Shown here: positions 50,837 through 52,102 of the stretch, one piece after another
How positions within the stretch are numbered: position 1 is the first letter of the stretch
How the letters are laid out: each line of letters opens with the position of its first letter
Source: Escherichia coli
GTDB lineage: Bacteria > Pseudomonadota > Gammaproteobacteria > Enterobacterales > Enterobacteriaceae
DNA: 64,000 nt
Direction: 5' to 3' (one strand)
Assembly: GCF_030013595.1 (NCBI RefSeq)
Contig: NZ_CP122768.1
Program-made: the position numbers and the translations under genes
The notes under the pieces: model-generated
What the model saw: only the letters and a program-made list of their open reading frames with translations
The model's database searches: none
What the model was told of the DNA's origin: nothing

Positions 50837-51841
50837 TCAAACTTTATAGAAGTTACGATACCATTCTACAAAGTTCTTTACTCCCTCTTTAACTGACGTT
50901 TCAGGTTTGAATCCTATTACGTCATACAGTGCTTTTGTATCAGCACTGGTTTCCAGTACATCACCGGGTTGGAGAGGCATCATATTCTTGTTGGCTTCAA
51001 TACCCAGAGCCTCTTCTAAGGCATTGATATAGTCCATCAACTCCACAGGCGAACTATTACCAATGTTATAGACACGATATGGTGCTGAACTTGTTGCTGG
51101 CGAACCTGTTTCTACAGCCCACTGTGGATCTTTTTCTGGAATAACATCCTGTAACCGAATAATAGCTTCGGCAATATCATCAATATAAGTAAAGTCACGC
51201 TTCATTTTGCCGAAGTTGTAAACATCAATGCTTTTACCTTCCAGCATGGCTTTAGTGAATTTAAATAATGCCATATCCGGACGTCCCCATGGACCATAAA
51301 CCGTAAAGAAACGCAGCCCTGTGGTCGGTAAGCCATACAAATGAGAATACGTATGGGCCATGAGTTCATTCGCTTTTTTAGTTGCTGCATAAAGCGAAAC
51401 AGGATGATCTACAGAGTCATCTGTAGAGAAAGGCATCTTGCGGTTCATGCCATAAACAGAACTGGAGGAAGCGTAAAGTAGATGCTGAACATTATTATAG
51501 CGGCATCCTTCCAGTATGTTCAGGAATCCAATCAGGTTTGCATCTGCATATGCATTGGGATTTTCAAGGGAGTAACGTACACCTGCTTGCGCAGCGAGGT
51601 TTATTACGCGATCGAACCGCTCGTCTGCAAACAGTGCCGCCATTTTCTCGCGATCGGCCAGGTCAATTTTATAAAAACTGAAATTGTCGTGCTTGAGTAA
51701 ATCAAGTCGTGCTTGTTTGAGGTTGACATCGTAATAATCATTTAAGTTGTCAATCCCTACAACCTGATGACCAGCTGCAAGAAGCCGTTTACTTACATAG
51801 AAACCGATAAAGCCAGCAGCTCCCGTAACCAGAAATTTCAT
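50837..51841 (-). CDS. UDP-glucuronate 4-epimerase (Uge/Gla family NAD-dependent epimerase)
   Basis: 334 aa; MKFLVTGAAGFIGFYVSKRLLAAGHQVVGIDNLNDYYDVNLKQARL, YAATKKANE catalytic Y-x3-K; sits next to ugd, which makes its substrate; opposite strand to its neighbours. Confidence 0.8.
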   Translation of the reverse strand: MKFLVTGAAGFIGFYVSKRLLAAGHQVVGIDNLNDYYDVNLKQARLDLLKHDNFSFYKIDLADREKMAALFADERFDRVINLAAQAGVRYSLENPNAYADANLIGFLNILEGCRYNNVQHLLYASSSSVYGMNRKMPFSTDDSVDHPVSLYAATKKANELMAHTYSHLYGLPTTGLRFFTVYGPWGRPDMALFKFTKAMLEGKSIDVYNFGKMKRDFTYIDDIAEAIIRLQDVIPEKDPQWAVETGSPATSSAPYRVYNIGNSSPVELMDYINALEEALGIEANKNMMPLQPGDVLETSADTKALYDVIGFKPETSVKEGVKNFVEWYRNFYKV

Positions 51842-52007
51842 TTATAATCCTCGCTCAGGCTAGAATATAGCCAATTTTCATCTGGCATAACTGAAAGTTA
51901 AATCATACCGTTAGACAAGAAAAAAAGATAATCGGTATCAGTTCTAAACCTGGCTGTTTTTTCTGGTAACGTGCTCATTTTACAATCAAAGCTGTTCTAA
52001 GCTGACT

Positions 52008-52102
52008 ATACAAGCCGACGTCATTATTTCCAACCGTATGGCAGAAGAGCTTAAGGATGTGGCAGATAAGGTCTACACCCGCGATCTTTTTGGCAGCGAC
52101 TA
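52008..52102 (+). pseudogene. ugd: Remnant of the 3' end of a second ugd allele (about 30 codons plus stop)
   Basis: Translates [29 protein letters not shown], compared with the intact ugd end [29 protein letters not shown] at 50683..50771; no upstream ORF attached. Confidence 0.8.

Follow-up and report, generated by a model that had tools for sequence, protein, structure and literature searches.

A ugd 3′-end relic marks the probable import of a UDP-glucuronate 4-epimerase gene between ugd and wzzB in Escherichia coli O147

In Klebsiella pneumoniae, ugd is followed by a convergent gene for a UDP-galacturonate C4-epimerase, glaKP, whose product serves LPS core synthesis; each of the three strains with complete sequences that were examined is reported to have it (PMC3101168). 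The same pairing of ugd with a convergent epimerase gene, which in Klebsiella (glaKP, or uge) closes off the cps locus, is found in the window analysed here, a 64,000-nucleotide stretch of E. coli DNA of O-antigen serogroup O147. The E. coli gene (gla), however, would serve O-antigen rather than LPS core synthesis. In Citrobacter, Enterobacter and Kluyvera (six loci, L004–L009, from the three genera) the order is gnd-ugd-gla-wzzB-hisI with a single ugd tail. This arrangement is native and scar-free, whereas gla in E. coli is accessory and, in the lineage of the window, is accompanied by a second, truncated ugd tail (the relic), which is absent from the native, donor-like arrangements. Junction remnants are also known from O-antigen and capsule loci with mosaic gnd and ugd genes, and the window shares with these the abrupt changes of allele, a truncated flanking housekeeping gene and spread in company with different O-antigen clusters. 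Homology-facilitated illegitimate recombination, which combines a homologous anchor with an illegitimate join, is known from bacteria with natural transformation, a trait not classically attributed to E. coli in nature.

On its left side the region begins with gnd (47950–49356, plus strand), a context open reading frame of the ordinary E. coli type whose stop codon is the left limit of the divergent region: nucleotide identity to K-12 and FT130 is 93–99% up to 49359 and collapses beyond. The gnd-ugd spacer and the first 339 nt of ugd (segment X, 49357–49943, plus strand) are common to epimerase-less O91-type E. coli and unlike K-12. Intact ugd (49605–50771, plus strand; in the ORF list and annotated as ugd by PGAP) encodes a UDP-glucose 6-dehydrogenase of 388 residues and is a chimera of X and a second, putatively imported segment, M. 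The putative imported block (49944–52009, ∼2,066 bp) comprises ugd nt 340–1167, gla with 168 bp of its upstream DNA and, between the two genes, a bidirectional terminator. The terminator, common to the convergent ugd and gla, is intrinsic (50788–50823) and consists of a perfect 18+18-nt palindrome with T-runs on both strands and a folding energy of −24 kcal/mol (z=−5.1 on the plus strand and −7.8 on the minus strand). It is followed by gla (50837–51841, minus strand), an intact, uninterrupted reading frame of 334 codons, and by the foreign upstream region of gla (51842–52009), which presumably contains its promoter and ends at the junction 52009/52010. A minus-strand epimerase gene directly after ugd and its terminator, at a position where K-12 has none, had been recognized in an earlier sequence-only reading, and both points hold, K-12 having ugd directly followed by wzzB. 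Beyond the relic (52010–52103, plus strand) lie the retained terminator of the resident ugd (52113–52135, plus strand; −19.4 kcal/mol, z=−7.2), a 10-bp stem followed by TCTCTT that is conserved in epimerase-less genomes, and wzzB, the O-antigen chain-length regulator gene (52250–53227, plus strand; ORF list and PGAP), whose 146-nt upstream spacer (52104–52249) is resident E. coli DNA. The ORF list of the window contains no transposase or integrase between gnd and wzzB, and a repeat search revealed neither terminal inverted repeats nor a target-site duplication flanking gla, the sole flanking direct repeat being the diverged 92-nt ugd tail. Insertion of gla by a transposon, IS element or cassette was therefore rejected. 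Base composition does not set the imported block off from its neighbours, the GC content being ∼0.39–0.46 across ugd and gla.

Gla contains the motifs GAAGFIG (GxxGxxG) at residues 7–13, SSSS at 125–128 and YAATK (YxxxK) at 151–155, and residues 177–191, as read from the translation, are RFFTVYGPWGRPDMA. Full-length matches to structures of SDR epimerases were obtained, and the extended SDR fold is accompanied by its NAD-binding and catalytic motifs. The protein matches PDB entry 5U4Q, which we take to be from K. pneumoniae, from end to end (E=5e-190). The next-best structures are 6ZL6/6ZLA (E=4e-43), presumably the Bacillus cereus UDP-GlcA 4-epimerase, then WbgU (1.8e-39) and MoeE5 (2.7e-34), which we take to be a UDP-GalNAc epimerase and a UDP-GlcA 4-epimerase, respectively. 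By this ranking the nearest solved or characterised proteins are UDP-GlcA 4-epimerases and not GalE, Gne or dehydratases. NCBIfam has no specific model for Gla, all hits falling far below the cut-offs, so the assignment rests on pairwise similarity. Homology and context, including the pairing with ugd, the supplier of UDP-GlcA, give good support to Gla as a predicted UDP-glucuronate 4-epimerase (Gla/GlaKP/Uge/Cap1J; EC 5.1.3.6).

The relic comprises 30 codons and a stop codon (TAA), is promoterless, and lacks a start codon and the 5′ part of the gene. An orphan ugd fragment had been placed at 52008–52102 by the sequence-only reading; the fragment is real, but its coordinates are 52010–52103 and its counterpart in intact ugd is 50678–50771. 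The description of the two as homologous but diverged, with the fragment in ugd orientation, is borne out by ungapped identity at 70 of 95 nt, with both copies on the plus strand, and by the significant similarity in nucleotide alignment. Upstream of the copies the resemblance stops: over 120 nt the identity is 21%, as expected at random. The repeat search independently recovered the pair as a 92-nt direct repeat (75% identity, copies 1,332 nt apart), and comparison with the intact gene gave E values of 4e-11 (blastn) and 3e-12 (tblastn). The match to FT130 ugd is far stronger (blastn E=9e-43). In a matrix of 94-nt tails the relic is 98.9% identical to FT130 and 94.7% to K-12, but to the working ugd, whose tail lies 1.3 kb upstream and is of a different type (73–74% identical to FT130- and K-12-type tails), the figure is only ∼74% (74.5%). 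Taken with its spacer, the relic is ∼96% identical to O91-type DNA. The relic and the functional ugd belong to different allelic lineages. The relic is not part of a longer reading frame: in-frame stops lie upstream, and the sole in-frame start would give a peptide of 21 residues. In the near-identical strain CV839-06, the NCBI pipeline gives it pseudogene status, under the label ‘hypothetical protein, missing N-terminus’, and it has been visible only as such an unnamed pseudogene in RefSeq annotation. The literature searched yielded no description of a ugd-tail relic, or of gla between ugd and wzz.

Homology to other E. coli ugd genes begins abruptly at 52010 and continues for 240 nt to the start of wzzB at 86–98% identity in ∼4,000 genomes. 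This right flank is colinear with epimerase-less genomes through the ugd terminator and spacer into wzzB, and identity to FT130 is 98% over the 245 nt that begin with the relic and reach just into wzzB. This organization gives no support to the proposal that a region including the relic now drives wzzB: the retained ugd terminator lies downstream of the relic, and relic and 146-nt spacer together are 98% identical to the same DNA in epimerase-less strains. On the other side of the junction, the 168 bp upstream of gla are 98–99% conserved among most carriers of the module and 89% identical over 141 nt in C8, and have no match in the K-12, FT130, O111-type, Citrobacter, Enterobacter or Kluyvera loci. 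Neither this DNA nor the ugd/gla terminator had a blastn match outside E. coli, and a donor search with Gla using one genome per species found native loci in which the best relatives are only 84–87% identical in amino acid sequence. Because the right junction joins DNA from upstream of gla to ugd at codon ∼352–358, it must be illegitimate and cannot be a homologous crossover.

The left junction appears to be of a different kind. Relative to the O91-type strain GPEC709, the window has 14 mismatches in the 574 nt before ∼49930 and 171 mismatches in the 841 nt from 49931 to 50771, with the first dense mismatches at 49944. The gnd-ugd spacer and ugd nt 1–339 are 96–100% identical to epimerase-less O91-type strains; ugd nt 1–339 by themselves are 99% identical to the O91-type and 67% identical to K-12, and from 49944 onward identity to the O91-type is ∼79%. 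The same change-point is present in all seven sampled carriers. Hence the comparison suggests that the import probably covered no more of ugd than its 3′ 828 nt. The O91-type allele is mosaic too: from about nt 400 it is 98% FT130-like, that is, of the same type as the relic, and its own breakpoint lies only ∼60 nt from that of the module. The imported part of ugd also varies among carriers, those of O113, O143 and O153/O178 differing from O147 by 8–10% within 50000–50450, so that some of the record has been erased by later exchanges. The left change-point could represent a later, separate recombination that was not part of the original import.

We propose, with a probability of about 0.8, that a foreign piece of ∼2.07 kb recombined into the E. 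coli chromosome and left the tail of the resident ugd behind; as part of this proposal, the relic is considered the non-functional leftover of the ugd gene that formerly occupied the site. We infer both the direction and the mechanism of this event. The donor would have been an enterobacterial relative with the native order gnd-ugd-gla-wzzB-hisI, ugd and gla being convergent, and the incoming piece would have consisted of the last ∼830 nt of the donor ugd, the bidirectional ugd/gla terminator, gla and the 168 bp upstream of gla. At the left end, a homologous crossover in ugd (codon ∼113; position 49944 or slightly before it) would have produced a functional chimeric gene, whereas the right end, having no homologous partner, would have been joined illegitimately 107–116 nt before the stop codon of the resident ugd. 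As this join fell within the resident ugd, the resident tail, its terminator and the entire upstream region of wzzB would have survived. Such a pattern would be expected of one-sided, homology-anchored illegitimate recombination, and the window, like the known examples of that process, would have one homologous crossover end (in ugd), a non-homologous join, a deletion of resident DNA and a duplicated stub, although here the mechanism is deduced from the product. The ugd allele of the recipient was most likely of the O91-type. The sequence-only reading had envisaged an imported block of ugd plus epimerase whose crossover inside the resident ugd left the old 3′ end behind. Import and the survival of the old end, as a relic of the common E. 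coli ugd type seen in FT130, are retained in our proposal, but the junction on the relic side is the illegitimate one and the homologous crossover would be that on the left. Subsequently the module would have spread, through homologous recombination of the ordinary kind, among serogroups that require UDP-galacturonate for the O unit, and decay of the relic appears to have begun, with the loss of 17 nt in the versions from O147, O143, O153/O178 and E. coli C.

A different account of the left side is that the donor contributed the gnd-ugd spacer and a complete ugd, X and M being one natural allele, along with gla. The left end would then lie at the gnd stop codon, and O91-type strains would have arisen later from a module carrier and a K-12-type strain, with loss of gla; the right junction and the relic would be explained as above. 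Similarity to K-12 and FT130 does end exactly at the gnd stop (∼49360), X is present in all sampled carriers, and X is closer to Citrobacter (80–82%) than to K-12 (67%) and so is foreign-looking too. However, nt 340–400 of the O91-type ugd match neither the module (74%) nor K-12/FT130 (56–61%), so that a module by K-12 derivation would require a third parent, and X-type spacers with an 80–90% ugd match occur in up to 677 genomes, of which the two inspected are both without gla. We therefore view import of the whole gene as rather unlikely. Far less probable still is an origin of the relic in situ, by tandem duplication or slippage of the ugd tail with insertion of gla between the copies and later decay. 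The copies are indeed direct repeats 1,332 nt apart, but the relic shares 95–99% identity with ugd tails from other strains as against 74% with its neighbour, and many of the differences between the copies are synonymous, with both still readable as ugd. Together these patterns indicate allelic divergence under selection rather than decay after duplication. Nor is gla surrounded by features that might account for its insertion, whether a transposase, inverted terminal repeats or a duplicated target site. Because the two tails differ in allele type in the identity matrix, local duplication was rejected.

The relic might instead have been kept for an acquired function, as part of the gla promoter, as an upstream control element or insulator of wzzB, or as the source of an RNA or small peptide. 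In none of the sampled carriers is the tail shorter than 94 nt or the terminator missing, a minus-strand promoter-like pair (TTGGAA and TATAGT, 17 nt apart, 52033–52005) spans the junction and points to gla, and, over the 30 codons compared, the copies of the window, O113 and C8 encode one and the same peptide although their nucleotides differ. Against this, the region has fewer promoter-like matches than shuffled sequences do (4 versus 7.7), and a 16–17-nt indel at the junction alters the spacing of the hexamers in the O113, O167 and C8 versions. No in-frame start exists beyond that of the possible 21-residue peptide, no Rfam family comes near its gathering score in the region, and gla and wzzB occur with no relic in O111-type E. 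coli and in other genera. The constancy of the peptide is also consistent with exchange of relic variants with live ugd alleles through recombination in the wzzB flank. An acquired function consequently seems improbable. Marginally more doubtful is a specific form of this idea for the 94-nt variant of O147, O143 and O153/O178, in which the antisense strand of the relic would supply the −35 element (TTGGAA, 52033–52028) and the imported DNA the −10 element (TATAGT, 52010–52005) of a gla promoter, the retained terminator would insulate wzzB, and the 17-nt deletion would be adaptive tuning of the promoter and not decay. On the preferred reading, import with retention of the resident tail, the relic is a real but ordinary recombination scar.

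Among 5,426 complete E. coli genomes, 269 (∼5%) contain gla together with the relic, 278 contain gla at 95% identity or above and 260 contain the window-type ugd allele at the same threshold, the imported block being 95–100% conserved in these ∼260–278 genomes. Any copy of gla was detected in 530 of the 5,426 genomes, making it an accessory gene. The module was seen in O147, O113, O143, O167, O153/O178, the C8/LL004-type cluster, E21845 and E. coli C, an association with serogroup that derives from 8 sampled genomes of ∼270 carriers. Comparison of the gnd-ugd-wzz interval across serogroups in the sampled genomes showed that carriers keep gla and the relic and that K-12 and O91-type strains are without gla. 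Both junctions are common to all sampled carriers, with the 16–17-nt indel as the sole difference at the right junction: the relic is 94 nt long in the window and 107–116 nt in O113, E21845, O167 and C8. At a coverage of 80% or above, junction queries for the two relic variants matched overlapping sets of 179 and 125 genomes, counts that are only partly informative because BLAST joined the query halves across the indel. These common breakpoints suggest a single assembly of the module, followed by its transfer among seven or more O-antigen clusters.

The distribution can be compared with O-unit composition. The O units of O147, O113, O143 and O167 presumably contain GalA or its amides, and we take that of O111 to be without GalA. 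For O178/O153, no confirmation of GalA in the O unit was found in the literature searched. The LL004-type O unit contains GalA, and the structural study concerned named the window-type gene gne and sought gla elsewhere (PMC8657804). In O111:H8, gla is a pseudogene, and in E. coli C, a rough laboratory strain, it is cut by an IS element, which is in keeping with decay of gla where it is not needed. The O111 pseudogene and the lack of gla in O91 follow the trend expected if gla accompanies GalA. In the serogroups with the module the UDP-GalA gene is accessory and wedged between ugd and wzzB, just outside the conventional galF-gnd O-antigen cluster. The relic and the two breakpoints provide a clean shared-derived lineage marker, useful for the recombination history of the his-gnd hotspot and for in-silico serotyping, and the relic, labelled an unnamed partial ‘hypothetical protein’ in ∼270 RefSeq genomes, can be named as a ugd fragment. 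The value of these observations is modest and practical, with no new biology of principle.

Other forms of gla are also present at this locus. In O111:H8, strain 20220828076 and CUVET20-416, a gla homologue adjoins ugd in the his-gnd region as in the window, but the alleles are only 73–77% identical in DNA. The first two are scar-free. O111 strains, unlike the window, have a single ugd tail, no relic and a gla gene with an internal stop. In CUVET20-416, ugd and gla are co-directional, whereas the window pair is convergent, and a separate ugd-tail relic of its own lies behind gla. These divergent alleles and arrangements indicate that gla reached the locus in more than one form.

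This region forms the his-proximal end of an E. coli O-antigen locus. It is 99.9–100% identical to strain CV839-06, in which wzx and wzy are annotated as O147 family. On the plus strand, gnd (47950–49356) is followed by the working copy of ugd (49605–50771) and then by wzzB (52250–53227), beyond which lies hisIE on the minus strand. Between ugd and wzzB is a minus-strand gene (gla, 50837–51841) for a predicted UDP-glucuronate 4-epimerase of 334 aa; in K-12, wzzB directly follows ugd. A perfect palindrome of 18+18 nt with T-runs on both sides (50788–50823) lies between ugd and gla and serves as a bidirectional terminator shared by the two genes. 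The GlcNAc-P-P-Und 4-epimerase gene, gnu, is found upstream of galF (window ∼37671–38666, from L001:3900–4895; L numbers denote extracted loci with their own coordinates), and its presence fits the GalNAc-initiated O unit expected for O147.

An orphan fragment of the ugd 3′ end had been placed beyond gla, at 52008–52102, by the sequence-only reading. The fragment is real, and its extent is refined to 52010–52103 (+), comprising 30 codons and TAA. This relic is homologous to the intact ugd tail (50678–50771) but diverged, with 70/95 nt matching in an ungapped alignment (blastn E = 4e-11 and tblastn E = 3e-12 against intact ugd), and the pair was also recovered by an independent repeat search of the window. 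The 120 nt upstream of each copy are unrelated (21% identity). The relic is not part of a longer intact ORF: its reading frame is shut upstream by stop codons, and an ORF search of the window found none of at least 25 aa covering it in frame. In CV839-06, RefSeq annotates it as a partial pseudogene without a name. A literature search for the relic found no description. As a gene relic left where recombination joined two sequences, here in the his-gnd hotspot, it is of a familiar kind and adds a new, clearly documented case.

With the ugd tails of FT130 and K-12, both strains that lack the epimerase gene, the 94-nt relic shares 98.9% and 94.7% identity, respectively, compared with only 74.5% for the working ugd tail of the same window. 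Similarity to epimerase-less genomes starts abruptly at 52010 and is colinear through the retained terminator of the resident ugd (52113–52135; −19.4 kcal/mol, z = −7.2) and a 146-nt spacer into wzzB. Over this stretch, FT130 is 98% identical and an O91-type strain 96%. No counterpart of the 168 nt that separate the relic from the gla start codon was seen in K-12, FT130, O111-type E. coli or other genera. At the right-hand junction, 52009/52010, foreign DNA from upstream of gla is thus connected to the interior of the resident ugd, which makes this an illegitimate join and not a homologous crossover.

Compared with K-12 and FT130, similarity breaks off at the stop codon of gnd, and the working ugd over its full length is only about 78% identical to theirs. 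A second class of epimerase-less E. coli is represented by GPEC709 and GENOMIC22-004, O91-type strains with wzzB directly after ugd. Against these, the gnd–ugd spacer and ugd nt 1–339 are 96–100% identical (14 mismatches in 574 nt); mismatches then rise to 171 in 841 nt from 49944 on. The change-point at 49944 is identical in 7/7 sampled carriers of the module (ugd, gla and relic). The working ugd in the window is best read as a chimera. The O91-type ugd (L096:2749–3915, GPEC709) is itself mosaic, with nt 1–339 as in module carriers, nt ∼340–400 of a third type that matches neither the module (74%) nor FT130 (61%), and nt 400–1167, to the end of the gene, 98% FT130-like, which is also the type of the relic. 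The breakpoints of the O91-type ugd and of the module are no more than about 60 nt apart; this part of ugd may be a hotspot of recombination or a boundary set by selection.

The simplest history that would account for these comparisons has three parts: an O91-type recipient, a foreign fragment and two junctions. A recipient carrying an O91-type ugd would have acquired a fragment consisting of the 3′ part of a foreign ugd, its terminator, gla and 168 bp, by one homologous crossover near codon 113 of ugd at the left end and one illegitimate join, 107–116 nt before the resident ugd stop codon, at the right end; the imported block would therefore be 49944–52009, about 2.07 kb. It is less parsimonious to suppose that the gnd–ugd spacer and the entire ugd were imported together and that the O91-type is a later recombinant, and the odd 60 nt of O91-type ugd (nt 340–400) speak against import of the whole gene. 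The original proposal of an imported block with a recombination scar is supported in essence, on the allele type of the relic and the abrupt junctions, and is refined to the two-junction model.

A scan with Gla as query against one genome per bacterial species revealed the order gnd–ugd–gla–wzzB–hisI in Citrobacter sp. FP75, C. werkmanii, Enterobacter cloacae, E. asburiae and an Enterobacter MAG. The order also holds in a Kluyvera locus, except that no wzzB match was detected there. These loci encode Gla at 84–87% and Ugd at 90–92% identity to the window; each has one ugd tail and none has a relic. No donor of the imported block was found among the genomes scanned. In Klebsiella, a convergent epimerase gene, glaKP (uge), likewise follows ugd (PMC3101168).

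The idea that a region containing the relic now drives wzzB is unsupported, because the retained ugd terminator separates the relic from wzzB and the 146 nt next to wzzB have hardly changed. What has changed upstream of wzzB is the loss of any possible read-through from ugd and the presence of a divergent promoter region for gla. A minus-strand promoter-like pair, TTGGAA-17 nt-TATAGT (52033–52005), straddles the junction and faces gla, with its −35 in relic antisense and its −10 ending at the junction. Shuffled sequence yields more promoter-like matches than this region does, and in relic variants of 107–116 nt the −35/−10 spacing is disrupted by the indel at the junction; that this pair is the gla promoter is speculation.

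Gla matches PDB 5U4Q, a Klebsiella pneumoniae NAD-dependent epimerase, over its full length (E = 5e-190). Next comes the 6ZL6/6ZLA entry family, Bacillus cereus UDP-glucuronate 4-epimerase, which scores better than WbgU and enzymes of the GalE type. The motifs GxxGxxG, YxxxK and RFFTVYGPWGRPDMA are present. NCBIfam has no specific model for Gla, hence its RefSeq name 'NAD-dependent epimerase'. The O units of O147 and O113 contain GalA and those of O143 and O167 contain GalA amides; an ATP-grasp amidoligase is encoded in both the O167 and E. coli C clusters. gla is absent from O91, whose O unit uses GlcA. We infer that Gla converts UDP-GlcA, provided through ugd, to UDP-GalA for O-unit synthesis. 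The genome comparisons show that, where the module is carried, gla is an accessory gene next to the O-antigen cluster. The LL004-type O unit also contains GalA, and the paper describing it labels a gene gne and states that gla 'always maps elsewhere' (PMC8657804). LL004 orf11 'gne' (UDP-GlcNAc 4-epimerase) matches gla of strain C8 (L090:11001–12005) in position, size and neighbouring gene products (PMC8657804). It appears to be the gla described here and, given the GalA in that O unit, the gne label looks like a misannotation.

Both gla and the relic occur in 269/5,426 complete E. coli genomes; gla at ≥95% identity is present in 278 and the ugd allele of the window, also at ≥95%, in 260. Sampled carriers are O147 (the window and CV839-06), O113 (NCTC9113 and RM10466), the O153/O178 family (STEC1585), O167, O143, E21845/O/A (O type not named), E. 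coli C, in which gla is truncated by an IS, and strain C8, with glycosyltransferases as in the LL004 'novel serogroup' cluster (PMC8657804). The right-hand junction is shared by all of them, and the relic is 107–116 nt long in O113, E21845, O167 and C8 and, owing to a 17-nt deletion at the junction, 94 nt in O147, O143, O153/O178 and E. coli C. The common junction and the two length variants indicate a probable single founding event, with later spread alongside different O-antigen clusters and early decay of the relic. Within the imported part of ugd (window 50000–50450), the O113 (L088), O153/O178 (L093) and O143 (L095) carriers differ from O147 by 8–10% over about 450 nt, and C8, E21845 and O167 barely differ from it; further recombination has patched the module. 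If only one of O153 and O178 has GalA, presence of the module might help to separate serogroups that share wzx and wzy. In the laboratory strain E. coli C (L091:9851–14415, NZ_CP020543.1), an IS3-family element between ugd and gla removes the gla 3′ end and a second IS3 splits wzzB, with the 94-nt relic retained.

More distant gla alleles (70–80% DNA identity) occur in other arrangements in a further ∼255 E. coli genomes. The O111:H8 locus (L084:3001–4005, NZ_CP077588.1) has the order gnd–ugd–gla–wzzB and no relic; its gla, divergent at 76.5% DNA identity, is interrupted by an internal stop and appears to be decaying, and the O111 O unit is not known to contain GalA. Strain 20220828076 has a scar-free ugd–gla–wzzB, and O8/O9-associated gla loci are in Klebsiella-like contexts. 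CUVET20-416 (L086:2837–2902, NZ_CP098870.1), with the order manC–manB–ugd–gla–relic–IS66 and gla co-directional with ugd, carries a second, independent ugd-tail relic just after gla, so a ugd stub has been left beside gla more than once. O177:H21 (L098:3025–4133, NZ_CP016546.1) shows another kind of rearrangement at this site: ugd has a frameshift, and wzzB is entirely absent, so that the ugd tail abuts hisIE.
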